Counted from the stretch's first letter, positions 3,501 through 32,000 are shown. The stretch: DNA of 32,000 nucleotides from Nitrosospira multiformis ATCC 25196 (GCF_000196355.1 NC_007614.1:2070001-2102000), one strand, 5' to 3'. Notes: generated by a model not told the origin, from the sequence alone. A program made the numbers and translations.

Positions 3501-3560
3501 CAGGATGGGTTCTTCTTTCTGATGCTTACCGGAGAGACTGCGCAAGACTCGAAATAAGAC

Positions 3561-4178
3561 TCAACGAGAAGCAGCGAGGGCGGTACGGTAACGCTTCCAG
3601 TCGAAACAGGGGCCCGGGTCGGTCTTGCGACCCGGGGCAATGTCGGAATGCCCTGCAATATGCTCGATGGGATAAGCCTTTTGCAGTTCCAGCGTGAGCC
3701 CGACCAGCATTCTGTATTGAGAATCGGTGAAAGGCTGCGAGTCGCTGCCTTCGAGCTCGATACCGATGGAAAAGTCATTGCACCGGCTCCTGCCCTGCCA
3801 GCAGGACTCCCCTGCATGCCAGGCGCGTTTTTCGCACGGGACGAATTGAATGACCTCTCCTGTCCGGGGAATATAAAAGTGACTGGAAACCCTGAGGCCG
3901 TGAATGGTGCGGTAGTAGGGGTGGGCTTCCGGATCGAGCTCGTTGGTGAATAACTCGGCTACACCGTTTCCGCCAAACTGATCGGGAGGAAGGCTGATGT
4001 TGTGAATCACGAGCAGTGAAATCGCACATCCCCCCGGCCGTTCGTCGAAATTGGGCGAAGCGATGAAGCGGATGCCCCTCGCACATCCCGTGGCATCGAT
4101 CTGCATGAGGCAGTCATCCTGTCGGACGCCGCCCGCGTCATTCTGCCGGCTGTAACCCATTTGCACCGGCGGGTTCAC
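3561..4178 (-). CDS. ampD: 1,6-anhydro-N-acetylmuramyl-L-alanine amidase AmpD
   Basis: Strong similarity to AmpD over SPNFDERP...LLVIHNISLPP..FGG...RVSSHF.I.R.GE..QFV....RAWHAG.S.W.GR..CNDFSIGIELEG...F...QY......L....P...I.GH.DIAP.RKTDPGP.FDW. The GTG start at 4178 overlaps the upstream stop as GTGA. An alternative start at Met 4106 (MQIDATG) fits E. coli AmpD length better. Confidence 0.85.
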   Translation of the reverse strand: MNPPVQMGYSRQNDAGGVRQDDCLMQIDATGCARGIRFIASPNFDERPGGCAISLLVIHNISLPPDQFGGNGVAELFTNELDPEAHPYYRTIHGLRVSSHFYIPRTGEVIQFVPCEKRAWHAGESCWQGRSRCNDFSIGIELEGSDSQPFTDSQYRMLVGLTLELQKAYPIEHIAGHSDIAPGRKTDPGPCFDWKRYRTALAASR

Positions 4179-4417
4179 GATTCAGATTGCAGGTGCAGTC
4201 GCCGATGCTCATCGCTGCAGAAAAACCTGCCTTCCGAAGTGATACTTTCGCTTCTGGGTAAATGGACGCCGCAGTAGACACATCGGACCATATCCTCACC
4301 TTCGAGAAATTGAGGCTGCTTATGCATCTCCTCACGTTTTTTGAGGGCGCGACGATAGCTCCTTATGACCCAGAAAAAAAGAAGGGCAATAAGGGCGAAG
4401 AACAGGATTCTACCCAA
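4175..4417 (-). CDS. small membrane-anchored zinc-ribbon protein (PP0621-family-like)
   Basis: 80 aa. It has an N-terminal TM helix (ILFFALIALLFFWVI), a basic linker, and then MVRCVYCGVHLPRSESITSEGRFFCSDEHRR (CxxC...CxxxH). This matches my recollection of the small 'PP0621 family' proteins. Its stop overlaps the ampD start. Confidence 0.65.
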   Translation of the reverse strand: MGRILFFALIALLFFWVIRSYRRALKKREEMHKQPQFLEGEDMVRCVYCGVHLPRSESITSEGRFFCSDEHRRLHLQSES

Positions 4418-4532
4418 GGGGGAATCTCCGTTGCGGTATCGAAACCGGCGGCAAGCAGTTAAATGACATGTACGGCATTCTACCGCTTATGCAATAGTGT
4501 GCAAGCTTGAGGGGGAATAAAAATCCGCCGCT

Positions 4533-4559
4533 CCCCACCTTCCCCCTGGCCCCTTCCCC
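4533..4559 (-). other. putative G-quadruplex-forming tract (GGGGAAGGGGCCAGGGGGAAGGTGGGG on the minus strand)
   Basis: The plus strand has four C-runs of 4-5 nt (4533-4536, 4542-4546, 4550-4553, 4556-4559) separated by 2-5 nt. The tract lies ~116 nt upstream of the 4417 start codon, on the coding strand of that operon. Confidence 0.4.
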
Positions 4560-4754
4560 ATTTGTGGAAAAGGGGAACAAATACTCGATTGACCTATTTC
4601 TTCTCTCTTGATTCTCTCTCTGCACTTGCAGACGTGTGGGAGGGGGCCAAATCTGACTCGCTTGCATACGGTCAGGAATGAATGACGCAGATATTCTGCA
4701 TATGACAGCGTTTCCGGATAGAAACAGTCGAAAACACCAATGTGAACAAACCGA

Positions 4755-4832
<78 letters not shown>

Positions 4833-4892
4833 AAAAACCGATTTTGAGACTTGCGGTGCCTGGAGCAATTCATGTCAGGCACGTGGGCTGCA

Positions 4893-4921
4893 ATTGTACG
4901 CAGGAAGGGGTTTTGGAGCAA
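4893..4921 (-). promoter_or_regulatory. candidate sigma70 promoter for tRNA-Pro
   Basis: The minus strand reads TTGCTC (4921..4916), a 17-nt spacer, then TACAAT (4898..4893). The -10 is ~60 nt upstream of the mature tRNA 5' end. This is a pattern match only. Confidence 0.35.
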
Positions 4922-4930
4922 TCCAAATTA

Positions 4931-4953
4931 GCGCGGTGACTGCGTCACCGCGC
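4931..4953 (-). terminator. hairpin downstream of ispB (possible intrinsic terminator)
   Basis: GCGCGGTGAC-TGC-GTCACCGCGC forms a perfect 10-bp GC-rich stem with a 3-nt loop, ~40 nt after the ispB stop. On the minus strand it is followed by TAATTTGG, which is only a weak U-tract. Confidence 0.45.
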
Positions 4954-4993
4954 CCCTGCGCTAAAGCAGGTGAATCAGGTCCAGATAAAACCA

Positions 4994-5962
4994 TTAATGA
5001 TTTCTCGCCACCGCAAAGGTGCTCAGATCCAGCAGGCATTGCTTATAGTCTGAATCCGGCAGTGAGGAAATCATGTTGGACGCGGTCTCGGATTCGGCCT
5101 GCGCGCGTTGTCTGGCATAATCCAATGCGCCGGTCTGCTGGATAACTTCCAGCACGGGCTGAAATCCCCCCTCGCCTCCCCGCTCGATGGCGCTGCGGAT
5201 GATCTGCGCCTGGGCGCCCGATCCTGTTTTCATGGCATAGATCAACGGCAGAGTGGGTTTGCCTTCTGCCAGATCGTCGCCCAGATTCTTGCCGGTTTCC
5301 TGATAATCCCCGGAATAATCCAGCATGTCATCGGTAAGTTGGAAGGCGGTGCCGAGATGCATGCCATACACGGCCATCGCTTCTTCCTCCGCTGGGGAGG
5401 CATTACCGAGGATCGCGCCGAGCCGCGTTGCGGCTTCGAACAGCTTCGCGGTCTTATAGCGGATCACACGCAGGTAATTTTCCTCATCGACGTCCGGATC
5501 ACGGACATTGAGCAGTTGCAACACTTCGCCTTCGGCAATCGTGTTGGTCGCATCGGCCAACACCCGCATGACCCGCATATTGTCCACTTCGACCATCATC
5601 TGGAATGCCCGGGAATATAGAAAATCCCCGACCAATACGCTGGCGGCGTTTCCAAACAGGGCATTTGCAGTCGCCTTGCTTCGCCTCAGTTCGGAAGCGT
5701 CCACAACGTCGTCATGCAGAAGGGTTGCCGTATGGATGAATTCCACGATGGCAGCAAGATTGTAATGGTATTGTCCGGTATAGCCGAATGCGCCAGCGGA
5801 CAGGATTACCAAAGCGGGCCGCAGACGCTTCCCGCCGCTGTTGATGATATATTCGCTTACCTGCCGGATGAGGACGACCTCCGAATGGAGTTTTTCACGA
5901 ATTACGGTATCCACCCTGCCCATATCGGGGGCAATCAGGCTTCTGATACGTTCAATTGACAC
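4994..5962 (-). CDS. ispB: octaprenyl-diphosphate synthase (long-chain trans-prenyl diphosphate synthase)
   Basis: Collinear with E. coli IspB as I recall it. Both DDxxD motifs are present (LLHDDVVD, FQLTDDMLD). The GTG at 5962 (VSIERIRSLIAPDM) aligns with the IspB N-terminus (MNLEKINELTAQDM), and AGGAA lies 7 nt upstream. The ORF-track start at 6064 adds 34 non-homologous residues. Confidence 0.9.
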   Translation of the reverse strand: MSIERIRSLIAPDMGRVDTVIREKLHSEVVLIRQVSEYIINSGGKRLRPALVILSAGAFGYTGQYHYNLAAIVEFIHTATLLHDDVVDASELRRSKATANALFGNAASVLVGDFLYSRAFQMMVEVDNMRVMRVLADATNTIAEGEVLQLLNVRDPDVDEENYLRVIRYKTAKLFEAATRLGAILGNASPAEEEAMAVYGMHLGTAFQLTDDMLDYSGDYQETGKNLGDDLAEGKPTLPLIYAMKTGSGAQAQIIRSAIERGGEGGFQPVLEVIQQTGALDYARQRAQAESETASNMISSLPDSDYKQCLLDLSTFAVARNH

Positions 5963-6070
5963 GGAGGTTCCTGCAAAAAAGATGCCATGGTAGAAATGTC
6001 GCCGCCAACGTGTCAAGTTCGAAAACAGGCAAAACTCGGATCGGGACACAAAACTCATCCGCAACAGACC

Positions 6071-6099
6071 TTTACCTTAAGTGGGTGACTCTGTATAAT
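6071..6099 (+). promoter_or_regulatory. candidate sigma70 promoter of rplU-rpmA (extended -10)
   Basis: TTTACC (6071-6076), a 17-nt spacer, then TG-n-TATAAT (TATAAT at 6094-6099). The -10 is ~55 nt upstream of the rplU ATG. Confidence 0.5.
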
Positions 6100-6154
6100 C
6101 CGCGTCTACTTCTTTTCATGGCTCCTTGGCGGGCGCAATAAACAGGATTTCATC

Positions 6155-6466
6155 ATGTACGCAGTCATAAAAACCGGCGGGAAGCAGTACCGGGTCGAAA
6201 ACGGGTTAAAACTCAAAATAGAACAGGTACCAGTAGAAATCGGAAGTGAACTTCTGATCGACCAGGTATTGATGGTTGCTGACGGCGACAATATCTCGCT
6301 GGGGAAACCCTTGGTAAGCGGCGCTTCTGTCAAAGCAACAGTGCTGGAACAAGGCAGGCATGACAAAGTCCGTATTTTCAAGATGCGCCGGCGCAAACAC
6401 TATCGGAAGCAGCAGGGGCATCGGCAGAACTACACCGAAATTCAGATTACCGGTATTTCGGTATAA
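6155..6466 (+). CDS. rplU: 50S ribosomal protein L21
   Basis: [17 protein letters not shown]...[25 protein letters not shown] is canonical L21. AGGA lies upstream of the ATG. Confidence 0.97.
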
Positions 6467-6478
6467 GGAGAGTTTGGC

Positions 6479-6736
6479 ATGGCACATAAAAAAGCAGGCG
6501 GCAGTTCCCGTAACGGGCGAGACTCCAATTCCAAGCGCCTTGGCGTGAAGCGCTTTGGCGGCGAGCTGATTCCGGCAGGCAGTATCATCATCCGCCAGCG
6601 GGGCACAAGAGTCCATCCGGGCGAGAATGTTGGAATGGGCAAGGATCACACACTGTTCGCGAAGGTGGACGGCAGGGTAAACTTCACGGTCAAAGGGTTG
6701 CCACAGCGCAAGACAGTAAGCATTATCCCGGCTTAA
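6479..6736 (+). CDS. rpmA: 50S ribosomal protein L27
   Basis: [29 protein letters not shown]...[21 protein letters not shown] is canonical L27. AAGGAGAG lies upstream. Confidence 0.97.
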
Positions 6737-8248: not shown

Positions 8249-8764
8249 ATGTCATTAGTCTCTATCCTGCTTTATTCGGTAGTGACTCTTTGGCTGGTAA
8301 TCACATTATTGGCGCAACACCCACGCTTCCAGTCCGTCATCAACCGGTTTAACGGACTTCATATCATTCCGCGCTGGACATTCTTTGCACCTAATCCCGG
8401 CGTCAGGGATTATCACCTGGTTATAAGGGAGCGTTACTGCGACGGGCGATTGACAGACTGGAAAAGCGTGACTGTTTATCCGCCGCGCCCGAAATTGGCT
8501 TACTTGTGGAATCCACAGAAGCGGGCATCGAAGATTCTGACTGATGCCATCCAGGCAATAAAGCTGTTGTTGAAACGCGACGATGTGGGACCCTCGGGAC
8601 TTCCTTTCACTGTCCCCTATCTCCTTCTTTTGCATTATGCAGCCCATGCTGTGCCGGCCGAGCCGGACGCTGCCGAATTTCAATTCGCGATTATCGAGTC
8701 TACAGGGCACCTCGAGCGGGAACTGGAATGCTCATTCCTTTCCAGTTTTCATAGCCGATGGTAA
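8249..8764 (+). CDS. single-pass membrane protein, SdpA-family-like
   Basis: An N-terminal TM helix (LVSILLYSVVTLWLVITLLA) is followed by IIPRWTFFAPNPGVRDYHLV. This resembles the PQGWxFFxxxP.D motif I recall for SdpA-family 'antimicrobial peptide system' proteins. It overlaps the next gene as ATGGTAA. The family call is from memory and needs an HMM check. Confidence 0.55.
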   Translation: MSLVSILLYSVVTLWLVITLLAQHPRFQSVINRFNGLHIIPRWTFFAPNPGVRDYHLVIRERYCDGRLTDWKSVTVYPPRPKLAYLWNPQKRASKILTDAIQAIKLLLKRDDVGPSGLPFTVPYLLLLHYAAHAVPAEPDAAEFQFAIIESTGHLERELECSFLSSFHSRW

Positions 8765-9591
8765 CTGAGGGCATGGCAGACATCGCCTTATGCCTTGTCA
8801 TCACCAAGACTCTATTGGCCGCTTGGGCCTTGCTTTCCGCAGCGGAATGGTTTGCCAACCTTCACCTGTTCCGGTCCGATGGCTTGCTCACATGGAATAT
8901 CCTGCGCCTGCGCCCACGTCTTTTAATCCCCGTATCCGTTCGCCATCGTGTGCACGCGGAATCCGCCGTAATTGCTGTCCTGGCATGCCGTATTGCCGCG
9001 GCACTTCTGCTGCTGATCCCCTACCCCAATCCCGCTGATTTGCCGTGCAGCCTGCTCATCCTGCTTTCATGCTTCTACATGTCACGCCGCACGTGGTTCG
9101 GTGGCGATGGGTCGGATCAGATGGGAATGGTCATTGCCGCAGGTGTTGCCATCATTTCCGCCGGCCTTGCGCTGGATGACATGAACCTGGCGGCCTCCGG
9201 TGTTTTTGCAATCAGCGGTCAAGCGGTCCTCGCCTATTTTGTTGCGGGCGCCGCCAAGGTGGTTTCACCGGCCTGGCGAGGCGGAAATGCGTTGCCCGGT
9301 GTGATGAAAACCCGAACATACGGACACTTCCTTGCCGCGAGTTTTGCCGCAGAGCGGCCCGCCTTCTGCAAGTTCGTATGCTGGTTGACTATCGGGACGG
9401 AAATGCTATTTCCACTCGTTCTATTGGCGCCACCCGGCGTGGCGGTTGCAAGTCTTTGCTGCTTCGCCCTTTTTCATTTTTCCAATGCCTACTTCATGGG
9501 ACTGAACGCGTTCGTCTGGCCTTTTCTCGCGACTTATCCGGCTGTCATGCTAGCCAATTCGGCGGCCCGAGACTGGATGGGCTGGATATGA
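8758..9591 (+). CDS. polytopic membrane protein, SdpB/HTTM-domain-like
   Basis: 277 aa with at least 6 hydrophobic segments. It contains NLHLFRSDG near the N-terminus and WFGGDGSDQMGMV, which resembles the GGDQ-type motif of HTTM/SdpB proteins as I recall it. An alternative start exists at Met 8773. The stop overlaps the DCC gene start as ATGA. Confidence 0.6.
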   Translation: MVTEGMADIALCLVITKTLLAAWALLSAAEWFANLHLFRSDGLLTWNILRLRPRLLIPVSVRHRVHAESAVIAVLACRIAAALLLLIPYPNPADLPCSLLILLSCFYMSRRTWFGGDGSDQMGMVIAAGVAIISAGLALDDMNLAASGVFAISGQAVLAYFVAGAAKVVSPAWRGGNALPGVMKTRTYGHFLAASFAAERPAFCKFVCWLTIGTEMLFPLVLLAPPGVAVASLCCFALFHFSNAYFMGLNAFVWPFLATYPAVMLANSAARDWMGWI

Positions 9592-18426: not shown

Positions 18427-19398
18427 ATGGCACTTGATCCCGATCTTGCAGCATTTCTCGAACTTGTGGAAGCGGGCATCAGCAATGGTGTCCCTCGCTT
18501 GCACGAGCTGCCGCCCGCGAAAGCGCGCGAACAATACGATATATCCACCCTGGCTCTGGATAGCCCAGGTATGGAGGTCGCGAGCGTCAAGGAAATCGGC
18601 ATCCCTTCCCGGGATGGAAATGAGATAACGGCAAGACTCTATGCGCCTCTGCTGGATGAGCCGTTGAACGGCCTGGCGGCGCCCGCGCTGCTGTATTTTC
18701 ATGGAGGCGGATATTGCGTGGGCAGCCTGGATTCCCACGACTCGCTATGCCGGACACTGGCTGCGCTGACCCCCTGCTGCGTGCTGAACGCCAGCTACCG
18801 GTTGGCGCCTGAGCATCCATTCCCCACGGCGGTACATGATGCGCAGGATGCCTACCGATGGCTTCTTTCCAACGGACTCGCTCATGGTATCGATCCTCAA
18901 CGGATAGCCGTGGGAGGCGATAGCGCAGGGGGCACGCTGGCCATCGGATTGACTATCGCCGCCAGGGAAATGGATTGGCCACAACCGGTATTCCAGGCGT
19001 TGCTCTACCCGTGCACAAGCGCGTGGCAGAATACCGATTCGCACCGCCGCTTCGCAAAGGGATACCTGCTCGAAGCTGCGACACTGCAATGGATGTTCAG
19101 CAATTACCTCACCAGCGAAAGGGACCGGACAGACTGGCGTTTTGCTCCCCTCGAGGCAAAGGATTTGAGCAGCCTCGCTCCGGCATTCATCGCCGTGGCG
19201 GAATACGATCCGCTCGTGGATGAAGGAATTGAATACGCCAACAGACTCAAAGATGCCGGCGTTCCCACTCAGCTCAAAATCTACGAGGGCATGACGCACG
19301 ACTTTGCGCGCCTGACGAATATCCTCAACGACGCAAGCAAGGTGCGTGAAGAAGTGGCGCAGCAATTACAGAGGGCTTTTGCTGCGCCTCGAACCTAG
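18427..19398 (+). CDS. alpha/beta hydrolase, HSL-type esterase/deacetylase
   Basis: The oxyanion motif is LLYFHGGGYCVGS and the nucleophile elbow is GGDSAGGTLA. Acid and His candidates are YDPLVDEG and GMTHDF. Confidence 0.85.
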   Translation: MALDPDLAAFLELVEAGISNGVPRLHELPPAKAREQYDISTLALDSPGMEVASVKEIGIPSRDGNEITARLYAPLLDEPLNGLAAPALLYFHGGGYCVGSLDSHDSLCRTLAALTPCCVLNASYRLAPEHPFPTAVHDAQDAYRWLLSNGLAHGIDPQRIAVGGDSAGGTLAIGLTIAAREMDWPQPVFQALLYPCTSAWQNTDSHRRFAKGYLLEAATLQWMFSNYLTSERDRTDWRFAPLEAKDLSSLAPAFIAVAEYDPLVDEGIEYANRLKDAGVPTQLKIYEGMTHDFARLTNILNDASKVREEVAQQLQRAFAAPRT

Positions 19399-19413
19399 CC
19401 AGGATGGCACCCT

Positions 19414-19803
19414 TCACGCTCCCATCGTGTCATCCATGTTTGCCAATGGCCATGCCGCCTCTCGTAACGCCTCCAGGGCATCACGCATGGGCACCGGCTC
19501 GTTTTGCACCAGGCGGCCTACCGCGTGCAATGGAACAAGCAAGTCCCTGCCTTCGTCCCCATAGCTGATCCACAGCGCTTCGAAATTCAGCGCGGGCACG
19601 CGAAACACGCGAAGTTCAGCCTCCTCCTCCGCTTCTCCCACCGCCTCCAGGACTTCGTACGTTCGTTGCAGTTGCCGCCCAGCAGCAGTTGGATTGGGTC
19701 TGCATCTGCATGTTGGATGCAAGCTGCTTCGATAAGAAAAGCCTGCCCCAAATGCTGAGTTCGTGCGAGAGGGAGCTGTAAGGAAGACTGGTAACGCGAA
19801 CAT
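19414..19803 (-). CDS. hypothetical protein; only the C-terminal ~85 aa look convincingly coding, and the 5' end and frame are uncertain
   Basis: The C-terminal part reads TYEVLEAVGEAEEEAELRVFRVPALNFEALWISYGDEGRDLLVPLHAVGRLVQNEPVPMRDALEALREAAWPLANMDD and is protein-like. The best SD plus ATG (AAGGAAAGAACAATG at 19816) is in a different frame. See the related finding. Confidence 0.35.
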   Translation of the reverse strand: MFALPVFLTAPSRTNSAFGAGFSYRSSLHPTCRCRPNPTAAGRQLQRTYEVLEAVGEAEEEAELRVFRVPALNFEALWISYGDEGRDLLVPLHAVGRLVQNEPVPMRDALEALREAAWPLANMDDTMGA

Positions 19804-19920
19804 ATTCAGATACGTTCATTGTTCTTTCCTTTTGGATTATCGATCTAACTTCGAGCACTTTTCATATCAAACCCAATATTTCTTTATAGCCGCTAAAGAC
19901 TGAAAGACAAGGCGCAAAGG

Positions 19921-22900
19921 TTATAGAACCTTCGAGGGAATTGCTGTCCTGGCACTCTCAAATCGAAGCGTACTTTCCATCCCGATAAACAACGCTTCTG
20001 CCCGTATGATCGAAAAGTGATCGGTATCGATTTCGTTTTCGGACAATTCAGGCTGGCCTGTTTGCCTTGAAAGAGCCAGCCGATCGGACAAGGGGCGGGT
20101 CGCAATCCACCAGCAGGTGGGTTGGATGTTCAAGCAGCCTAATTCCGAAGCCTGGGCAGCAAGCGCTTTCAAGTGCCGCGCGATGCCAAAGATACGAGCC
20201 AGTTCGCTTGCTCCCAGATCCGCATACCCGCCACGCTTCTTTTTCGTAGACGAAGGTGCACCTTCCGGCGAAACAGCATCTTCCGAAGCCTGCATGGCGG
20301 AAATCAATTCATCCAGTAAACCGGCCAAAGTTTCTTCCGATGGCTGCTTCAAGGATTGCAGACAACTCTTTTGATTTCCATCAGGAAAAACTCCATCCGC
20401 GCCATCGATTTTCGCTCCGGGCAGCACCACGGAAACAAAATCGGAAAAATCCTGTCGCCAGTCATCGGGCTCGGGTTCGTCTATGGCGGGAATGAAGGAA
20501 TCGATGAGACCCAGAAACGCCACCTCCTGCCCCTCCGCCTCCAGTAACACAGCCATCATGGCTGCAAGAGTGCCGCCGAGGGACCACCCTGACAGATGGT
20601 AGGGCCCCTCCGGCTGCGCCCGGCGAATGATCTGGACATAATCTGCCGCCATCTGGGCGAGAGAAGTATCGCGGTGTCCAGGATCAGAGAGCATGCGGCA
20701 AGGTATTCCATAGACCGTGCGCGTACCCTGTAGATGCCGTGCAAGCGGCTGGTAGTCGAACACAGTGCCCAAACCGGCATGGATGCAGAATAACGGTTCG
20801 ACTTTCGCTTTTTCGTCGCGCTGGTTTAACAGCAGCAGTGGCTGTGTTTTGCCGGGGGCTTCAACGTCCAGGCCGAGCAAACCGGCAATGGTCGGGCGCT
20901 GCATCAGATCCCGCAACTTGAAATCGAATTTCAAGCCGGGCAGGTTGCGCATTCGGGCCATGACTTTCAGGCTGGAGAGCGAATCTCCGCCGAGGGCGAA
21001 GAAGTTGTCCGTCTCGCCTACCCGTTCCACGCCCAGCACCTCCTGCCAGATCTGCGCCAGAAGCCTCGCTTCCGAAGTAGAGGGTGCTCGATAAGTGTCG
21101 GCAGCAACCGCATCCGGCTCCGGTAATGCACTGCGGTCAAGCTTGCCACTGGGCAGTCGGGGCAGCTTGTCCAGGATGACGATATGCGCGGGCACCATGT
21201 ATTCGGGCAGCCGCCTGACAAGTTGCTGCTTCAGCGTGCTTCCCAGCCCCGCACTCCCCTTCCGGACTGGTGCAACCATCCCCGTCGTCTCCTTCGGCGC
21301 GACATAAGCGGCGAGTTGCGGTCCTCCCGCCCCTTCCCGAACAACGACTGCAACATCGGTCAGTCCGGTAAGCTCACGTATGCATGCCTCGATTTCGCCC
21401 AGCTCGATCCGGAACCCCCGAATCTTCACTTGATGGTCAGCACGGCCGATATATTCGATATTGCCATCATCCAGCCAACGCACCAGATCACCCGTGCGGT
21501 AGAGCCGCCCGCCATTCCCGTCGAATGGGTCGGCTACAAAGCGCTCCGCTGTCAGTCCCGCTCGTCCCAGGTACCCGCGAGCAAGGCCATAGCCGCCGAT
21601 GTACAATTCTCCAACCCTGCCTATGGGTACCGGCTGCATATCGAGGTCGAGAACATACGCCGTCCGTTCTCCCACGGGTCTGCCGATGGGTGCGTAGGCG
21701 CAATCGAAACTGTTGCTTGCCTCCGTCTTCCAGATCAATGGGGTAACTACCGTCTCGGTGGGTCCGTAACCATTGATCAGAATGCGAGGCCGCAAAGTCT
21801 TTCGCACCAGGTCGTAGGAAGCCTTGGGCATGGCTTCGCCTCCGAAGACATAAAGCTCTACCGGGGGCGGATCGCTGCGGGGCGCAGCCCATTCGGCAAC
21901 CTGGCCTAGGTAAGCGGGTGGAAATGCTGCATTGGTAATGCCATAGCTGTGCAAAGCGTCGTATGTCTGCTCCGCGGTCCACAGTTCCTGGTCGCGCACT
22001 GCCAGGCCGGCACCGACTGTCAGTGCGGTCAGCCAGCGCTCATGTGCGCCATCGAATGAGAATGACATGAAGAGCAGCTCGCATGAGTGCGGCGTCATAC
22101 CGTAAATTCCCGCCGTCGCTTGGCAGTGCATGCTCAGGGGACCGTGCGCGACTGCCACTCCCTTGGGAAGCCCGGTCGAGCCCGATGTGTAGATAATGTA
22201 AGCCAGATTATGCTCATGGAGGGGAATGTCGGGGTTAGAGCCTGATTCCGCCGTCAGATCCAGCGAATCCAGCAACCACACCTGCACTCCAAAGCCGCTG
22301 CCGAGCTTGGCGAGCAACTTCTCTTCCGTCAAAAGGAGTGACATGCCACTGTCGTTCACCATGAAGGACAGGCGCTCTACCGGATATTCGGGATCGAGTG
22401 GTACATAGGCCCCGCCAGCCTTGAGCACGGCCAGCAGCGTGACAATGACCTCGAGCGAGCGTTCCATCGCCACTCCTACTCTCACTTCCGGTCCCACACC
22501 CATACGGGCGAGATGGTGCGCCAGCCGGTTTGCCCGCTCATTCAACTCCGCGTAGGATAATTCCTGCTCACCCATGAGCAGCGCAATCGCTTCAGGGTGG
22601 TGTTCCGCGTTCTGCTCTATCAGGTTGTGCACAAACTGACGCGAAAGCCGCGAGGGCAAGGTTTCCAAATGCGCATTGGATCCGAGAGAAAGGAGGTGCC
22701 CAATCTCTCTTTTTTCCATCCACCCCAGCTCTCCCACACGCCACTCCGGATGAGCCATCATTTCCCTCATCAGGAATTCCATTTGGCTGCGAAGACCGAG
22801 CACGAATGCTTCCGTAAAGTCTCCACACCCGTAGCAGTACTCGATTTCCAACCTGTCGCCCACCACGACCTGTAAGTCCATCGCGTATCCGGTCAACCCT

Positions 22901-25900
22901 TTGCCCTCTATTTCGCCGAAACGAAGACCATAAAGTTCGTTGCCGCGCAGCGCCTCGTCTATCGGGTAATTCTCGAATACGACAATGCTGTCGAATAAAG
23001 GCTGTCCGGGTGAACCGGCCCACCGCTGAATTTCGGCGAGCGATGCGTGCTCATGCTCACGCAGCCTGGCATTCGTTTTCTGCAGCAGGTCGAGATATTC
23101 TGCGACTGTCAGCTCACTTCGGTGCTCGACCGGAACCGGAATGGTATTGATGAACATTCCCATGATTTCGTCCGATTTGAGGAGACTATGGGGACGTCCT
23201 GCTACCGTCGCACCGAACACAACGGTGTCCTTGCCGGTGTGGCGCTGCAAAAGCAAGGCCCACGCGGCCTGCACGAAGGTGTTGAGCGTTATCTGCTGCC
23301 GTTGCGCGAAAGCCTTCAATCGACGCGTTTCGTTCTGACCCAGGAGGGTATAAATCTGGGCAAATCCTGCACAGCTTTCCTGCCCCTCCGGTCCCTCTGT
23401 CTTGCCAACTGTTTTCCGCAGCAAAGTGGGGCCATCGACCGCCTGAAGCTCACCCTGCCAGAAGTGTCGAGTCGCTTCGGCGTCCTGTTGCGCGAGCCAC
23501 CGTATGTAATGACCGTAGTCCGGCCCTACGTCGCGAAGCACCTTTCCGTCGTAGCAGCGCAGCCATTCGCTGATAAGCAGGGAATCAGCCCAGCCATCGA
23601 GCAGTATGTGATGGCGGGTCCATATCAGCTGATAACGGTTTTCAGCCAGGCGTATGAGAGCAAATCGCGCCAAGGGTGGCGCAAGAAAATCGAATTCCCG
23701 TTTCAACTCTTCTTCCGCATAAGGGGTAACACGGGAAGCCGTCTTATCCAGACCACGCCAGTCGAGATGAATCACCGGTACCTCGACCTTTCTGAATACA
23801 ATTTGCAGCGGGCGCCCGAGACCCGCTTGCCACAGGAAACCGGTGCGCAATATCGGATGACGAGCCACCATTTCCCGCCAAGCCCGCGTGAAGCGCTCCG
23901 GGTCCAGACCTTGCACTTCAACGCTGAGCTGGTTTACATAAAGCCCCATTCCGTCCCCTGCCGTTTCCAGGGTATGGAACAGCATCCCTTCCTGGGTGGG
24001 TGACAAAGGATAAACGTCTTCAATTTCATCCTCATCCAACGCAAGACCAGCAATCGTGCCGGCATTCAAATAGTCATGCAGATGACCTCGCTGCGGCTTG
24101 AGCAGAGCTGCCACCGTTTCCTGTATCGTCTCAGCCACTTCTGCCAGTGACGCGATGGTCTGGCGCTCGAACAATTGGCGTGGCGTGATCTTCCAGCCGA
24201 CACGGCGTGCCCTGGTGACAATCTGGAGACTGAGTATGGAATCGCCTCCCAGCTCGAAGAAGTTGTCATGCCGCCCCACCTGCGCCACACCCAGCACCTG
24301 CCCCCAGATACCCGCCAGCACCTCTTCCGCCTCTCCCTGCGGCGCCTCATAATGCTCCGTATGCGTAAACTCCGGCTCAGGCAAGGCCTTGCGGTCTACC
24401 TTGCCGCTCGGATTGAGCGGCAGACTCTCCAACACCACAATCATTGAGGGCAGCATGTAGTCGGGTAAGGTTCTGGCAAGCGCTTCGCGCAGTCGTGCTG
24501 CGTCCAAATCGGTCGTTGCATGGGCAGAAACATAGGCTATCAGCCGCGCTCCCCCTGTTGGATTGGATGCATTGGATCCTTCCCTCGCAACCACCACCGC
24601 TTCCCTGACTTCCGGCTGCGCCAGCAATTGCGTTTCGATTTCACCCAGTTCAATGCGGAATCCCCGTATCTTGACCTGATGATCCAGCCGCCCCAGGTAT
24701 TCGATCTGCCCGTCCGAGCGCCATCTTGCCAGATCCCCCGTGCGGTAGAGCCGCCCCCCTGTCTCATCGAAGGGATCGGCTATGAAACGGTCCGCCGTCA
24801 ATCCTCCACGGTTGAGATAGCCGCGGGCCAAGCCAATGCCACCCAGATACAGCTCTCCTGCCACTCCTTGCGGTACTTGGTTAAGATGAACATCGAGAAT
24901 GTATGCTTGGAGACCAGAGATCGGTTTTCCGATAGGCACGCTATTGTCCCTATCGTCAACACATTCCCATTGCGTGACATCGATTGCCGCTTCGGTCGGC
25001 CCGTAAAGGTTGAAGAGCCCCACGCCAGGGAGTTTTCTGAAAACCTGTTTCTGCACTTCCGCCTGCAGTGCTTCCCCACTGCAAATGATGCGTCGTAGAG
25101 TAGCAACGCATGCCTCTATTCCCTCATGCGCAAGAAATGCCTGTAGCATGGATGGAACAAAATGCAGGGTAGTCACGTTCTGGCGCAGGATTAGAGAGAG
25201 CAGACGGGCTGGATCACGGTGATCACCAGGCGCTGCGATGGCAAGACGTGCTCCGTACATCAATGGCCAGAAAAATTCCCAGACCGAAACGTCAAAGCTG
25301 AAAGGCGTCTTTTGAAGAACGGTATCGTCGTTACCCAGTTCGTATGCTTCCTGCATCCAGGCCAGGCGGTTATACAGAGCAAGGTGACGGTTGCCAGCTC
25401 CCTTTGGTTTACCTGTGGAGCCTGAGGTATAGATGACATAGGCAAGGTTGTGTCCATGCAGGACGGCTTGCGGATTGCTGTCGGATTCATCCTCGAGGTC
25501 GAGCCTGTCCAGCTCCAGCACCGGATATTGGCCGGAGTGGGGAATGCGCGATCGAACCCCGCTTTGCGTCAGCAGCAGCCCGATGCCACTGTCTGCCACC
25601 ATGTAGGCCAGCCGCTCCTGCGGATATTCCGGGTCGAGCGGCACATACGCCCCGCCCGCCTTCAGGGTGGCAAGCAACCCCACCACCATGTCGATCGAGC
25701 GCTCCACCGCAATGCCTACCTTGACCTCCGGCCCAACCCCGAGCCTGATCAAGCGGTGCGCCAGAAGGTTCGCCCTTCGGTTCAGCTCGCCATAGCTCAA
25801 TTCGGCATCGCCAAAGATCAGGGCAACCGCCCCCGGCTGGACTTCAACCTGCCGTTCGATCAGCCTGTGCACGGGCTCGGTATTGGCGTAGCGCTGCTCG

Positions 25901-28900
25901 TTGATCCCCCAGGCCTTGAGCTGCGCCCGCTCGGCTGCACCAAGGATGTCGATGTCGCCAAGGCTCTGGGGCGAGTTGGTGGGAGTAGCGGCAATCCTGT
26001 CGAGGAGTCTGTGGAGCTGCGCTGCAATGGATTCCACCGTCGTTCGCGAAAAATATCTGCAATCGTAACTGTAGCCCAGCGACAGCATGGTATTCTGCAT
26101 AACCGATACCATCATCGGATAATTGCTGCTCTCGCGATTACGGATATTGGAAAAGGCAGGGCCGCCCGGAGTGGATTCCCGCAACGCCTCATCCATGGGA
26201 TAGTTCTCGAACACGAGAATGCTGTCGAATAATCCCTGCCCGCTTTGTCCCAGCCAGCGCTGGATTTCATACAAAGGTGTTTGCTCGTGTTCGCGCGAGG
26301 CAAGGTTCTGCGCTTGCAGGTCGCGCAGCCATGCGCCGACCTGGTGCTCGGGCTGGAGCGTTACGGACACGGGAAGCGTATTGATGAACAATCCCAGCAA
26401 GTGCTCCGCTCCTGGCAGGTCGGCCGGCCTTCCCGCCACCGTGGCGCCAAAAAGAACAGTTTGCTTCCCGGTGTACCGGCTCAGCAAGATCGCCCAAGCG
26501 GCCTGTATCAGCGTGTTGAGGGTGACACGTTCGCGCCGGGCGAATTGAATCAACCCCTCGGAAAGAGAGAGCGGCAGTTCAGTGATATGCTCCCCGAAAT
26601 GCTCTTCATGATCGGAATTTCCCCGGTGTGCAGGCAATGTCACCGCCAGCCGCGTTGGCTCCCGGATGCCCTTCAGTCGCTCCCTCCAGTATGCTTCGGA
26701 AACTTCCACATCACGGCGCTGCAGCCATTCGATAAACCTGCGGTATTCGCCTCTGCCCCGTAACGCTTCCTGAGCCGGGGAAAATCTTCCGGCATATCGC
26801 CGCAATACTTCCCCGGCCAGTTGGGAAGTGCTCCATCCGTCAAGCAGCAAGTGATGGATCGTCCAGATGAAGTGATACCGGTCGTCCGCCAGCCGCACCA
26901 GTGCAAAGCGCATGAGTGGAGGTTTGGCGAGATCAAAACCCGAGGCATATTCCGCCTGGGCCAATGCCTCAAGATCGCGCTCCCTATCCTCTCTATGCTC
27001 CTTATCCTCCCTGGCCCGCCAGTCGTGTTCCACAAATGGCAGCTCGACAGACTTGGCTACCCATTGCAGGGGTTTGCTGTCCTGAGTCACGAAACCTGTC
27101 CGTAACACTGGGTGGCAAGCCATCGCATCCTGCCACGCAGCCTTGAAACGAGTTGCCTCCAGTCCCTCGATATCGGCCCTCAACTGATTGAGGTAAACAC
27201 TGTGGTCGTCCCTGTCGAATACGCTGTGGAAAAGTATGCCCTCCTGCAATGGAGAAAGCGGATAAAGGTCTTCAAGCTGTGCGGCGGCTACGGGCAGACT
27301 GTCCAGCTCGCGCTGGGTGATTTCGACCAACGGGAAATCAGAAGGGGTAAGGCCTTGTATGCCACGGGTGCAATGGGCAATCAGCGTTTCAAGCTCAGCC
27401 TGGTAAACGTTCATGAATGCCTCAATTGTCGTCCTGTGGTAACGCGCGTCGCTATAGCTCACCGTAAGACACAGTTCGCCCTCGTAAACATGACCATTTA
27501 TGGAAATATCATGACTGAGAGGCGCATTTTCATCGATCAGATCCCCTGTCGATTCGGTCGCCAACGTCCAGAGCGCGCTTTCGTCGAAACTCGCATCCAG
27601 TTGCCCCAGGTAATTGAATACGACTTCAGGCCTGGGCAGGGATGCCAGGACTTCACGCTGTTCGGACGTGCCGTGATACTTGAACAGGCCGTAACCCACT
27701 CCCTTGTTCGGTACCCTCCGCAGATCTTCCTTGATGCGCTTGATTCTCTGAGCCAGGTCTCCGGCTGGGTCGAGCAACACGGGATAGAGGGTGGTAAACC
27801 AGCCGACCGTTTGTGAAAGGTCGATATCGTATAAATCTTCCCGGCCATGGCCTTCAAGATCGATCAGGATTTTCTTATGGCCGCTCCACCGGCAGAGGGC
27901 GCTTCCCAGGGCGGTAAGCAACAGATCGTTTACGTGAGTACGATAGGCTGCGGGCGCCTCCTTGAGCAAGGCGCGGGTCTGGGCCTTGCCCAGCTTGAGC
28001 ACAGCATCGCGCTGGTGACAGACGAAGCTCGCGCCCTCGGGGTTATCGCAGGGCAGTATGACCGGCACTCCCTTCAAGCTTCGCCAGTAAATCAGCTCTT
28101 CCCTGTTTTCATGTACATAACGCTGCAGCCGCGCGCTCCATACCTCATAGCTCCCCGATTTTTCGGGTAATGCGATGATTTGGGCATTCCGGGCCTGACT
28201 ATAGGCGCTCTGCAAATCCTCGAGCAGGATACGCCAGGAAACACCGTCGATCACAAGATGATGAATGACCAGCAGCAACCGCTGGCTGCGATCGTCCATA
28301 TCGAAAAGCACGGCACGCAGCACCGGGCCTTCCACGAGATTCAGGCTGCGCTGCGCCTCGTTGCACAGTGCTTCCAGATCGGCGTCGGCAGAAGCTTTGC
28401 GCACCCATAATAAATCAGCAGCGATCGATTCCCCACAAGACTGCTGCCACTGGCTCCTTTCATTTCTGATGAAGCGGAAACGAAGCGCATCGTGGTGGCG
28501 CACCACGGCTTCCAGTGCCTCTCCAAGATGTGCAGGATTCAAATACTCGCGGCTTCTCAGGAGCGCTGCCTGGTTCCAGTGATGTCGCGCGGGAATTTCC
28601 CGTTCGAAAAATTCAGCCTGAATAGGCAGCAGCGATAGAAGTCTTCCCGAGCCTCCGCCGCTCAATCCTTCTTTCGATTGCGCGCTTGCGATTGGGGCTA
28701 GGGTAGCGATGGTTGCATCCTGAACCTCGAGTGCCATTGCCACCGCCGCCAACGAAGCGATGGTCTGCCGCTCGAACAATTGGCGTGGCGTGATCTTCCA
28801 GCCGGCGCGGCGCGCCCGGGTGACGATCTGGAGACTCAGTATGGAATCACCCCCTAGCTCAAAGAAGTTGTCATGCCGTCCCACCTCTGCCACACCCAGC

Positions 28901-31900
28901 ACCTGCCCCCAGATGCCCGCCAGCACCTCTTCCGCCTCTCCCTGCGGCGCCTCATAATGCTCCGTATGCGTAAACTCCGGCTCAGGCAAGGCCTTGCGGT
29001 CTACCTTGCCGCTCGGATTGAGCGGCAGACTCTCCAGCACCACAATCATCGAGGGCAGCATGTAGTCGGGTAAGGTTCTGGCAAGCGCTTCGCGCAGTCG
29101 TGCTGCGTCCAAATCGGTCGTTGCATGGGCAGAAACATAGGCTATCAGCCGCGCTCCCCCTGTTGGATTGGATGCACTGGATCCTTCCCTCGCAACCACC
29201 ACCGCTTCCCTGACTTCCGGCTGCGCCAGCAATTGCGTTTCGATTTCACCCAGTTCAATGCGGAATCCCCGTATCTTGACCTGATGATCCAGCCGCCCCA
29301 GGTATTCGATCTGCCCGTCCGAGCGCCATCTTGCCAGATCCCCCGTGCGGTAGAGCCGCCCCCCTGTCTCATCGAAGGGATCGGCTATGAAACGGTCCGC
29401 CGTCAATCCTCCACGGTTGAGATAGCCGCGGGCCAACCCGATGCCACCCAGATACAGCTCTCCCGCTACGCCCGCCGGAACCGGGTTCAGATCGGAGTCG
29501 AGAATATAGGCGATCCGGTCACCGACAGGACAACCGATGGGCATGTAGGCGGACTCGAATCCTGTTCCGGGATAGGCTTTCGAAATGAGGGGTGTAATGA
29601 CTGTTTCGGTCGGGCCATAGCCGTTGATGATGCGAGGCGGCTGAAGCGTTGTCTGTACAAAATCAAAGCTGGCGCGACTCATGGCTTCGCCACCAACCGT
29701 ATACGAACGGATCGGCAAAGCGCGTCCCGCAGTACCCAGCAGCTCTGCCATCTGGTGCAGATAGTTCGGGGTAAAACAGGCTATGGTTATCCGATGCTTT
29801 ACAATCTCCGCCACAGTTCGTTCGACGGACCAGAAATCATTATCACGCGGCATCAGCGCCGATCCGAAGGCAAGGGGCACAAGCCAGCGTTCATGCGCGC
29901 CGTCGAAGTTGATCGAGGCGAACTGAAGTTCCCTATCCATGGTCGTCATGCCATAAGCCTTGCCTATGGACTGAACATGCATCGACAGAGGCTCGTGGGT
30001 GACGCTCACGCCCTTTGGTTTACCTGTGGAGCCTGAGGTATAGATGACATAGGCAAGGTTGTGTCCATGCAGGACGGCTTGCGGATTGCTGTCGGATTCA
30101 TCCTCGAGGTCGAGCCTGTCCAGCTCCAGCACCGGATATTGGCCGGAGTGGGGAATGCGCGATCGAACCCGGCTTTGCGTCAGCAACAGCCCGATGCCAC
30201 TGTCTGCCACCATGTAGGCCAGCCGCTCCTGCGGATATTCCGGATCAAGCGGCACATATGCTCCGCCCGCCTTCAGGGTGGCAAGCAACCCCACCACCAT
30301 GTCGATCGAGCGCTCCACCGCAATGCCCACCTTGACCTCCGGCCCAACCCCAAGCCTGATCAAACGGTGCGCCAGGCGGTTCGCCCTTCGGTTCAGCTCG
30401 CCGTAGCTCAATTCGACATCGCCAAAGATCAGGGCAATCGCTTCCGGCTGGACTTCAACCTGCCGCTCGATCAGCCTGTGCACGGGCTCGGTATTGGCGT
30501 AGCGCTGCTCGTTGATCCCCCAGGCCTTGAGCTGCGCCCGCTCGGCTTCACTGAGGATGTCGATGTCGCCAAGGTTCTGCTGCGGATGCTCGGCCAGTTG
30601 CTCCAGAAGAAGCAGATAATGGTTGCCAAGCCGCCCAATGGTGGCAGGTTCAAACAGCTCGGCGGCATAGGTGAAGGTGGCTTCCAGCCTGCCATCGGGC
30701 TGCTCGACCGTATCCAGGGTCAGTTCGAACTGCGCCGCCTGCTCGCTCAGCTCGTGATTTTCCACCTTGAGCCCGGGCAATTGCTCGAGTGCCCGGTAGT
30801 CTTCGCGCAGGTGGTTGTACATGACCTGAAACAGAGGATTCTGATTCAGGTTGCGTTCGGGTTGCAGGGCTTCAACCAGTCGCTCGAACGGCAAATCCTG
30901 GTGGGTCTGGGCACCCAGCGCTGCTTCCCGCGTCTGATCGAGCAACGTATGCAGGGACATGCGCCCATCCATGAGGGTGCGCAATACCTGGGTATTGACG
31001 AAGAAGCCGACGATGTTTTCTATTTCAGCCCGATGCCGGTTGGCAATCGGCACGCCCACGCGGATATCCCGCTGGCCGGTATAGCGATAGAGCAGGCCTT
31101 GAAAGCCCGAGAGCAGCGCCATGAACAGGGTCGCTCCCTGGCTTTGCGCCTGACGCTGCAAGCGTGTAACCAGACCCGCAGGTAATGTGAAGGTGTGGCG
31201 CGCCGCACGGTAACTGGCCCTGGAAGATCGGGGGTGATCGGTGGGCAATTGCAATACCGGGTGCTCTTCCCCCAACTGGCTGCGCCAGTAGGCCAGCTGG
31301 CGCTCTTTTTCTCCCGCTTCCAGCCAGTTGCGCTGCCATATCGCGTAATCGGCATACTGGATCGGCAGGGCCGGCAGGGAGGGTTCCTGCCCCTGTTTCT
31401 CCCCCTCCTGCTCCTGCTGCACCCGTGCCCGATAGTGGGCGGCAAATTCGTCAATGACAATGCGGTTGGACCAGGCGTCCGAGATGATGTGGTGCATCAC
31501 CACCACGAGAAGATGTTCTTCCGCTGCAATGCGGATGAGGGCAACCCGAAGCAGCGGGCCTTGCGTCAGATCAAAGGGCGTGCCGGCTATCCGGCCCGCT
31601 TCTTCACCGGCTTGCGCTCTGGCTTGTTCCAGCGGCAGTCCGGAAAAGTCGGTCAGCGGAATTTCAAGCCGCGGCTCGTCTTCGATGATCTGCTCCGGCA
31701 ACCCTTCCGAATTGACCCTGAATATCGTACGCAACGACTCATGCCGCCTGCCCAGCGCCGCAAAGCTCCAACGCAGCGCTTCAATATCCACCCTGCCCGT
31801 CAGCCGCAATCCCCCGCTCAAATGATAAGCCGTGCTCAACGGCTCCAATTGCCATAAAAACCAGTGACGCTCCTGTGCGTATGAGAGTGCGCTACGGTTT

Positions 31901-32000
31901 CCCGTTTTTTGCGGAACAATGGGAAGAAGAGAAAAATCGAATCCCCGTTTTTTCAGGGCATTCAGGAATTCTTTCTGTTTCTCGGGAGCAAGGGCTGCGA
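19921..32000 (-). CDS. non-ribosomal peptide synthetase, 5'-truncated by the window; visible architecture C-A-T-E-C-A-T-C-A-T-TE
   Basis: A single frame is open from the window edge to TAA at 19921. The frame continues upstream of the ORF-track start (…[53 protein letters not shown]…), so at least one more module lies outside. Core motifs are listed under the domain features. Domain coordinates come from hand counting, and the residue count closed exactly at 3975. Confidence 0.97.
   Translation of the reverse strand, partial: [4025 protein letters not shown]
19999..20811 (-). other. NRPS domain TE (thioesterase, chain release)
   Basis: [10 protein letters not shown], nucleophile elbow LSGWSLGG, Asp candidate GLIDS and His candidate DTDHFSI. 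It is the terminal domain of the protein. Confidence 0.8.
20884..21093 (-). other. NRPS domain T3 (thiolation)
   Basis: [14 protein letters not shown]. Confidence 0.8.
21130..22635 (-). other. NRPS domain A3 (adenylation)
   Basis: Motifs [77 protein letters not shown] and PSGKLDR. The hand-extracted code is D-G-E-A-V-G-G-V-T-K, the same class as A1. Confidence 0.8.
22714..24021 (-). other. NRPS domain C3 (condensation; DCL-like or dual E/C-like)
   Basis: Motifs [22 protein letters not shown] and [10 protein letters not shown]. Confidence 0.7.
24136..24342 (-). other. NRPS domain T2 (thiolation; GGDSI type, near copy of T1)
   Basis: [40 protein letters not shown]. Confidence 0.85.
24152..24857. 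repeat. intragenic direct repeat R1, copy b (A2 motif A6 through T2)
   Basis: Aligns without gaps to 28757-29462 (offset 4605). I counted ~20 mismatches by eye in 706 nt, and only 5 in 24322-24857. Confidence 0.9.
24382..25872 (-). other. NRPS domain A2 (adenylation, Ser-like code)
   Basis: The core reads [11 protein letters not shown]...TLHFVPSML...CSGEAL...[13 protein letters not shown]. The hand-extracted code D-V-W-H-I-S-L-I-D-K matches the classical Ser code DVWHLSLIDK at 9/10. Confidence 0.75.
25400..25965. repeat. intragenic direct repeat R2, copy b (C2-A2 linker through A2 motif A3)
   Basis: Aligns without gaps to 30011-30576 (offset 4611). I counted ~20 mismatches by eye in 566 nt. 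The repeat ends exactly at the codons for ...STGKPKG. Confidence 0.9.
25969..27276 (-). other. NRPS domain C2 (condensation, DCL-like)
   Basis: Motifs [15 protein letters not shown] and [10 protein letters not shown] (His codons verified at 26856..26851). It follows an E domain, as expected for a DCL domain. Confidence 0.8.
27349..28647 (-). other. NRPS domain E1 (epimerization)
   Basis: Motifs [32 protein letters not shown] and [10 protein letters not shown]. Confidence 0.8.
28741..28947 (-). other. NRPS domain T1 (thiolation; GGDSI type)
   Basis: [13 protein letters not shown]; the Ser codon was verified at 28845..28843. Confidence 0.85.
28757..29462. repeat. intragenic direct repeat R1, copy a (A1 motif A6 through T1)
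   Basis: See 24152-24857. Confidence 0.9.
28987..30483 (-). other. NRPS domain A1 (adenylation)
   Basis: Motifs [77 protein letters not shown] and [10 protein letters not shown]. The hand-extracted 10-residue code versus GrsA numbering is D-G-E-C-T-G-G-I-T-K. Confidence 0.8.
30011..30576. repeat. intragenic direct repeat R2, copy a (C1-A1 linker through A1 motif A3)
   Basis: See 25400-25965. Confidence 0.9.
30574..31893 (-). other. NRPS domain C1 (condensation, LCL-like)
   Basis: Motifs [15 protein letters not shown] and [10 protein letters not shown]. Confidence 0.8.

Follow-up and report, generated by a model that had tools for sequence, protein, structure and literature searches.

Repeated flanks and divergent cores in a nonribosomal peptide synthetase gene

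We analysed a stretch of 32,000 nucleotides from Nitrosospira multiformis ATCC 25196 (NC_007614.1:2070001-2102000), referred to as the window, which carries a nonribosomal peptide synthetase (NRPS) gene with a mosaic pair of adenylation domains. Located on the minus strand, the gene extends from position 19921 to past 32000; its frame is still open upstream of 31848, and the N-terminal few dozen residues lie outside the window (open reading frame (ORF) list and translation). Pfam searches gave the domain order C-A-T-E-C-A-T-C-A-T-TE (C, condensation; A, adenylation; T, carrier; E, epimerization; TE, thioesterase), based on four Condensation-family, three AMP-binding, three PP-binding and one Thioesterase stretches. 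In the first two modules a dissimilar specificity core is flanked on either side by nearly identical DNA, and it is highly probable that recurrent intragenic gene conversion, halted at the divergent core, made these flanks nearly identical. In the following, A domains are numbered by module, and conserved motifs within them are always called motifs.

Read in the direction of transcription (all features on the minus strand), module 1 consists of the C1 domain (30577..32000; Pfam Condensation at aa 1-440), an N-terminal flank from the C-A linker to motif A3 (30011..30576, aa 426-613), the A1 specificity core from just after motif A3 to motif A6 (29463..30010, with FDGAHERW as motif A4), and a C-terminal flank comprising motifs A6-A10 and the T1 carrier domain (28757..29462). 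The E domain and C2 follow (25966..28756, split at approximately 27330; HHxxxDG motifs at aa 1196 and 1664) and form a unique spacer that separates the repeats. Module 2 repeats the arrangement with an N-terminal flank (25400..25965, aa 1963-2150), the A2 core (24858..25399, with FDVSVWEF as motif A4) and a C-terminal flank with T2 (24152..24857). C3 (22738..24151) and the A3-T3 part of module 3 (20869..22737, motif A4 again FDGAHERW) complete the region; A3 belongs to a separate backbone lineage and was used as an internal control.

The N-terminal flanks of A1 and A2 (repeat R2, 25400-25965 versus 30011-30576, offset 4611) differ at 21 of 566 nt (96.3% identity by ungapped diagonals, self-BLAST and codon comparison) and extend from LGDIDIL to the G of STGKPKG. 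The C-terminal flanks (repeat R1, 24152-24857 versus 28757-29462, offset 4605) differ at 20 of 706 nt (97.2%) and extend from GELYLGG (aa 796) to QTIASLA; five of the mismatches fall in the part with motifs A6-A10 and 15 in the T part. The first-pass annotation had read these repeats from the sequence; their positions and offsets were confirmed, and the split of mismatches was reproduced exactly. At the protein level the flanks are 96-99% identical. The segments between the repeats measure 548 nt in A1 and 542 nt in A2, confirming the 6-nt difference noted earlier, and share only 42% nt and 28% aa identity in a codon alignment (45-60% by gapped global DNA alignment). The pairwise alignment that had been proposed as a check thus found cores that are not homologous at flank-like identity (42% versus 96-97%). 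When A1 was compared with the control domain A3, nucleotide identity was even along the module (N-terminal flank 60%, core 54%, C-terminal flank 62%, T 54%), which shows that the mosaic is specific to the A1/A2 pair and not a general property of A domains. The A1/A2 mosaic is far beyond chance.

All four repeat limits coincide with points where the two modules lose homology. Inwards these are the two core borders; outwards they are the junctions where the heterologous C1 and C2 begin, identity to the region upstream of A2 falling to about 50% past 30590/25980 (global DNA alignment), and where E and the heterologous C3 begin, identity falling past 24150. GRINS are repeats with intense nucleotide skew in assembly-line genes, marked by strong GC/TA skew that is limited to the repeated segments, and thresholds for them have been published. 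On the coding strand of the window, the flanks have a GC skew towards G of no more than about 0.13-0.22, and the non-repeated flanks of A3 have the same, so that the skew would not be distinctive.

The pocket codes were read off the alignment, and the substrates given here are predictions from these codes. A1 carries DGECTGGITK, A2 DVWHISLIDK (predicted serine) and A3 DGEAVGGVTK, in agreement with the earlier assignment of a Ser-like code to A2 and a DGE-type code to A1. The signature DGECTGGITK is listed among N-delta-modified ornithine domains (PMC12283262), and the predicted substrate of A1 is of the N5-acyl/hydroxy-ornithine type. Such a signature fits the adjacent genes, which include a lysine/ornithine N-monooxygenase (Lys_Orn_oxgnase) and a GNAT N-acyltransferase (Acetyltransf_8). 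Pfam searches further identified a TonB-dependent receptor (Plug and TonB_dep_Rec; ABB75123.1), an ABC exporter (ABC_tran with ABC_membrane), a PepSY_TM protein and an esterase (ABB75124.1). With the expected monooxygenase, acyltransferase, receptor and exporter genes all present, the NRPS belongs to a hydroxamate siderophore cluster. No Pfam match was obtained for a small ORF of 129 aa that lies between the esterase and NRPS genes (19414-19803, minus strand), for two plus-strand ORFs (8249-8764 and 8758-9591), or for the antisense ORFs on the plus strand across the NRPS region. A literature search on Nitrosospira siderophore NRPSs returned no paper carrying these terms in its title.

Young flanks and old cores among Nitrosospira orthologues

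To compare the mosaic between strains, orthologues were collected with the E-C2 region as query, one genome per species, which yielded Nitrosospira loci at 61-89% protein identity. Full-length orthologues were obtained from four genomes: strain Nl7 (L004), strain Nsp14 (L009) and two further loci (L006 and L007). Whole genes were compared by maps of blastn high-scoring segment pairs (HSPs) and by global alignments of local regions.

Both flank repeats are present in all four orthologues, and the identity between the A1 and A2 flanks within a genome varies by lineage and independently for each flank. It amounts to 96% (N-terminal flank) and 97% (C-terminal flank) in the window, 90% and 78% in Nl7, 87% and 99% in L006, 97% and about 70% in Nsp14, and 76% and 75% in L007 (73-77% by codon comparison). 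In identity matrices, trees and bootstraps alike, paralogous flanks within a genome are more similar to each other than orthologous flanks between genomes. Flank DNA trees group the copies by genome and not by module position, and core trees group them by type and position. In a quartet of the A1 and A2 domains of the window and of L007, informative sites supported grouping by genome over grouping by position by 59 to 1 in the N-terminal flank, 34 to 0 in motifs A6-A10 and 11 to 2 in T; in the core the ratio was 9 to 166. Neighbour-joining bootstraps joined A1 and A2 of the window at 100, 100 and 96 when the three flank segments were used and at 0 with the core, where each core-type clade received 100. 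The separate phylogenies that had been suggested earlier therefore conflict, the flanks following the genome and the cores their type.

Synonymous differences per unchanged codon between A1 and A2 of the window are 0.07 in the N-terminal flank, 0.02 in motifs A6-A10 and 0.26 in T, compared with 0.11-0.13 for ATCC 25196 versus Nl7 and 0.45-0.55 for the window versus L007. Homogenisation of the A-domain parts of the flanks thus took place after, or at about the time when, the sister strain split off.

The cores have a different history. The L007 gene is only about 74% identical to the window gene at the DNA level. The A1 core of the window is 85% identical in amino acids to the A1 core of L007 and 83% to that of Nsp14, and its A2 core is 80% identical to the A2 core of L007; synonymous divergence of the cores (0.43-0.55) matches the rest of the gene. 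A contig of a metagenome-assembled genome (MAG) representing a third member of the N. multiformis clade (L076, GCA_020696875.1) carries a Ser core 94.3% identical in nucleotides to that of the window, and its C1 is 92.2% identical. Both window cores are inherited by position, and neither shows signs of recent arrival. Outside the genus, the A2 core shares 70% aa identity with Ser-type cores of Halomonas and 72-77% with A-domain fragments of Pseudomonas, Azohydromonas and Variovorax, one of which is named a pyoverdine side-chain NRPS in its source. A donor for the window cores was not found, the nearest Ser-core match outside Nitrosospira in the protein search being 77% identical in amino acids; the matches in this search were all short fragments (at most 361 aa), in which the flank and core context of distant relatives is unreadable.

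Genus-wide, the backbone common to the flanks of A1, A2 and an additional A0 domain described below is 70-88% identical in amino acids and bears four core types. DGECTGGITK (predicted modified ornithine) is found in A1 of the window, L007 and Nsp14; DVWHISLIDK (predicted Ser) in A2 of the window, L007 and L076; DILQLGMIWK (predicted Gly) in A2 of Nl7, with a second, distant Gly-like core in L006; and DGEDHGTVTK (predicted Orn) in A0 of L007 and Nsp14, A2 of Nsp14 and A1 of L006. The predicted substrate thus differs between A1 and A2 within the window and, at module 2, between strains (Ser, Gly or Orn). Between-strain alignments break at 25398-25400 upstream and resume at 24794-24906 downstream (blastn HSP maps), which are the same two borders as those between the window copies, namely the end of motif A3 (25399/25400 and 30010/30011) and motif A6 (about 24858 and 29463). 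These breakpoints flank the binding pocket inside the A domain, with the C-A linker, the Asub subdomain and T retained, and the differences between strains at module 2 are core replacements.

Only in Nl7 was a replacement younger than the strain split seen. Along most of the gene ATCC 25196 and Nl7 are 90-97% identical, but a single contiguous block reaches only 62-87%; it starts at motif A3 of A2, continues across Asub and T2 and takes in the whole of C3 (25399 to about 22800 in the window, 13365 to about 16000 in L004). In Nl7 this block carries the Gly-type core, and its C3 is only 73.6% identical to that of the window. The exchange unit here comprises core, Asub, T and C.

A different pattern was observed in the third module. 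The A3 core (21611-22158) is 93-96% identical in amino acids across Nitrosospira and its own flanks are 69-79% identical. Recent transfer of this core was considered and rejected, as synonymous divergence is 0.49-0.65 and equal in core and flanks; the cause is therefore purifying selection, acting strongly on this terminal core of the hydroxy-Orn type.

Within the repeats of the window the mismatches are unevenly distributed. The 160 nt of the N-terminal flank adjoining the core (30011-30170) contain none, and the other 406 nt contain 21 (0/156 versus 21/405, p=0.002, Fisher test). In the C-terminal flank, three mismatches fall in 521 nt of motifs A6-A10 (28916-29436), and the T part (28757-28917) holds 15, nearly all synonymous; in the tract comparison, T counts about 20 in 171 nt, again nearly all synonymous (3/519 versus 20/171, p=3e-10, Fisher test). 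At least three tracts of unlike age are visible in this genome, which bears out the earlier suspicion of more than one conversion tract. In an alignment of five N-terminal flanks, window A1 bears Nl7 A2-type sequence in some patches, and in other patches both Nl7 copies carry a common strain-specific sequence, so that conversion was patchy and bidirectional. The possibility that tracts are always anchored at the core was rejected, because the perfect stretch adjoins the outer border in Nsp14 and L006. In a Halomonas sp. (L011, 1674-3328 versus 5012-6666) two adjacent Ser-type A domains are 97.5% identical over 1,655 nt with the core included; in contrast to the window, the entire A domain is homogenised there and not the flanks alone.

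Gene conversion as the probable cause, and competing explanations

These observations are best accounted for by the following scheme. Modules 1 and 2 are built on the same A-T backbone, which extends from the C-A linker to motif A3 and again from motif A6 to the end of T and encloses two anciently distinct cores, of the acyl-hydroxy-Orn and Ser types. The backbone copies form direct repeats 4.6 kb apart, and homologous recombination without crossover (gene conversion) recurs between them and keeps them nearly identical. Conversion tracts end where homology ends, at the core inwards and at the C1/C2 and E/C3 junctions outwards, and heteroduplex extension halted by heterology would give such limits. 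A conversion that overwrote a core would alter the peptide, and a crossover would cost the gene a module; selection presumably eliminates both. The common backbone would predate the genus, and its origin would require a duplication with later core replacement, or some other event of like effect. In this scheme the machinery behind the recombination, the part played by selection and the course of each conversion are what we infer from the pattern.

Several observations weigh against this explanation or limit it. The ATCC 25196 copies are known from assembled sequence alone. Just four full-length orthologues carry the comparison, of which L006 is frameshifted and Nl7 has its A1 core masked by N; the N run (L004 8564-9292) spans exactly this core and represents either masking in the sequence collection or a scaffolding gap where repeats bound the segment. 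The tract breakpoints used in the Fisher tests were picked after viewing the data. The indications on direction disagree: the GC content at third codon positions (GC3) points to A2 flanks overwritten from A1, and the C-terminal flank is nearer to L007 A2 than to L007 A1. The Nl7 block from A2 to C3, being itself foreign, is unusable as a reference for conversion direction. Finally, the most identical tracts of the window adjoin the core on both sides, which a recent core insertion could also give, although this core-adjoining pattern is not repeated in other genomes.

The last point leads to the strongest competing explanation, a recent core swap in the window lineage, in which one module would be a recent copy whose core between motifs A3 and A6 was then replaced, the flanks being merely young. 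In addition to the nearly perfect stretches on both sides of the core, the GC3 of the A2 core (0.51, compared with 0.64-0.76 in its flanks) would fit this explanation (the non-homogenised A2 domain of L007 is uniform at 0.55-0.58), and the block that distinguishes Nl7 from the window starts exactly at motif A3 of A2, so that replacements do happen in the clade. The swap is nevertheless improbable. L007 has orthologues of both cores at the same position and Nsp14 has one of the A1 core (80-85% aa), with synonymous divergence as found gene-wide, and the Ser core of L076 is as close to that of the window as its C1; its presence in this third genome of the clade indicates that Nl7 holds the derived state. 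Moreover, the flank tract ages differ more than 10-fold, and the unique E-C2 spacer is without a paralogue, so that nothing indicates that a module was duplicated recently. The first-pass annotation had left a core swap and gene conversion side by side: gene conversion is retained as the direct cause of the flank identity, since both cores are old and inherited by position, and the swap is not the cause here.

For the older origin of the common backbone, however, a swap or an equivalent event would be needed. The A1 flanks are closer to the Ser-type than to the hydroxy-Orn-type domains of Halomonas (59% versus 48% in the N-terminal flank and 69% versus 51% in motifs A6-A10), and the A1 core shows the reverse (29% versus 48%). 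Judged from this one outgroup locus, A1 looks like an ancient chimera.

An assembly artefact, in which a repeat was collapsed or misjoined, has to be considered because these genes are indeed difficult to assemble, as the first-pass annotation had warned. In five draft genomes (L001, L002, L003, L005 and L010) the E-C2 spacer forms a separate contig of some 3 kb, with ends at 28851-29021 on the R1 side and 25792-25874 on the R2 side (in L005 at 26024, just outside R2), and a Logan contig (L074) ends at 24193 inside R1. The MAG contig L076 (9732-10924) joins C1 and an A1-type N-terminal flank to an A2-type N-terminal flank and the Ser core; the switch lies in the N-terminal flank at a frame-breaking 10-nt deletion, and the contig then ends in R1. 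This junction is most likely a chimeric MAG join rather than a true module-deletion allele. For the window itself an artefact is very improbable. The copies differ at 41 positions in an ordered pattern and are therefore not collapsed; the same architecture occurs on single long contigs of L007 (89.6 kb) and Nsp14 (180 kb), with flanks too diverged to mislead an assembler; the independent assembly of the Logan contig is 100% identical to the window from 19001 to 24193; and the source genome is a single 3.18-Mb record, which we take to be a finished, Sanger-era sequence.

Purifying selection alone, with both modules needing the same linker, Asub and T and no recombination involved, would fit the high protein identity of the flanks and, by a general argument, their role as inter-domain interfaces (PMC8097286), but can practically be dismissed, as synonymous sites are nearly identical as well (0.02-0.07 in the A-domain parts versus 0.45-0.55 between orthologues), which constraint at the protein level cannot account for, the flanks cluster by genome with bootstrap 100, the modules of L007 function with flanks just 73-77% identical, and the antisense ORFs, as candidates for an overlapping functional element constraining codons, gave no Pfam match.

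With gene conversion as the preferred explanation, the repeats may also be involved in the gain and loss of modules. L007 (3365-6763) and Nsp14 (L009, about 3289-6690) contain an extra C0-A0(Orn)-T0 gene between a KS-AT-KR-ACP polyketide synthase (PKS) gene and the large NRPS gene; Nl7 is without it, the PKS gene lying directly upstream of the NRPS gene, and L076 has the same layout. In L007, C0 and the N-terminal flank of A0 are 99.8% identical over 1,860 nt to C1 and the N-terminal flank of A1, and in L006 an A0-type Orn core sits inside module 1. Unequal recombination between the flank repeats of an ancestor with four modules could have produced both layouts, and the reverse course, module gain, would be equally possible. 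The extra module and the L006 architecture thus lend indirect support to the earlier proposal that the repeats could mediate module gain or loss. A more far-reaching idea, which we regard as doubtful, is that the homogenised flanks (0.5-0.7 kb on each side of the segment between motifs A3 and A6, in several modules) may be maintained by gene conversion as "landing pads" for the core as a portable cassette, with modules gained or lost in frame. If true, siderophore diversity in the genus would arise largely at two borders, covering Ser, Gly or Orn at one position, the Orn core that L006 has in module 1 and whether a strain has the extra Orn module or lacks it, and both borders would be naturally proven fusion points for engineering.

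Most close Ser-core matches in the protein search are "partial" A-domain proteins from contigs of about 0.6-1.1 kb in Pseudomonas, Azohydromonas, Variovorax and others, and some P. aeruginosa clusters among them have more than 1,000 members. A unique core between repeated flanks is suggested to be a common layout that fragments assemblies widely.

Significance and relation to known systems

The gene separates two processes that are usually confounded: homogenisation of the scaffold by gene conversion, which is young and lineage-specific, and replacement of the core, which is rarer and recurs at the same borders. One backbone tolerates four predicted substrate types genus-wide (Ser, Gly, Orn and acyl-hydroxy-Orn), with fusion points just after the P-loop of motif A3 and at motif A6. 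As published partial swaps at nearby points mostly failed (PMC7486941), these natural borders are worth testing. The core differences further predict structural variants of an uncharacterised siderophore in ammonia-oxidising bacteria. Because short-read and MAG assemblies come out broken or scrambled at such genes, module order taken from them is unreliable.

The case belongs to an NRPS process that is already known; what is particular is that the scaffold is cleanly separate from a protected core, with motif A3 on the scaffold side. When placed on the GrsA sequence, the window borders map to about G199/T200 and G373 (a unit of about 200-372), so that the natural variable unit is larger than the engineered units discussed below. 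This mapping agrees with the four GrsA residues given in PMC7486941.

Recombination of part of the A domain, with the C-A linker, Asub and T left in place, has been described as the chief way in which NRPSs diversify in nature, and natural cases of Acore or subdomain recombination include microcystin (mcyB/mcyC), the Ahp-cyclodepsipeptides and hormaomycin (Baunach et al., 2021, and work cited there; PMC8097286). As in these cases, the exchange unit in the window lies within the A domain, the same module position is hit repeatedly and the predicted specificity is altered. In mcyB, motifs A3-A9 of one module were copied into another, so that the specificity region is alike; the window shows the opposite, with flanks alike and cores that differ, and, compared with mcyB/mcyC-type cases, its cores are without an identified donor. 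A statistical survey across Pseudomonas, Bacillus and Streptomyces placed breakpoint hotspots at motifs A2-A4 and from about motif A5, flanking the substrate-segregating region, and partial swaps engineered in PvdD at GrsA K205/A322, at T221/I352 and at other points failed (2020; PMC7486941). The borders in the window, at the end of motif A3 and the start of motif A6, likewise sit on either side of the pocket, and Pseudomonas, one of the genera of that survey, is also among the sources of the near relatives of the Ser core outside Nitrosospira, as A-domain fragments.

Intragenomic A-domain recombination has been described for the wollamide/desotamide NRPS, in a paper which also notes that the history of modules is obscured by concerted evolution and gene conversion (Booth et al., 2022; PMC9205934). 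The wollamide case resembles the present one in that a recombinant region within the A domain shifts specificity (Gly versus Orn there) while the C-A interface is kept. It differs in the unit, which runs from motif A2 to motif A5/A6 and includes the P-loop of motif A3, whereas in the window the P-loop stays with the homogenised flank; it also has an identified donor in the same genome, whereas none was found for the window. Concerted evolution of repeated modules in assembly-line synthases by gene conversion is a general concept, for which Santoyo and Romero (2005) are cited in PMC9205934. The window conforms to it, with paralogues closer within a genome than orthologues between genomes, synonymous sites included, and with lineage-specific tracts. 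Unlike the general case, the homogenised unit is split in two by a protected heterologous cassette, and each of its four limits falls on the border of a domain or subdomain.

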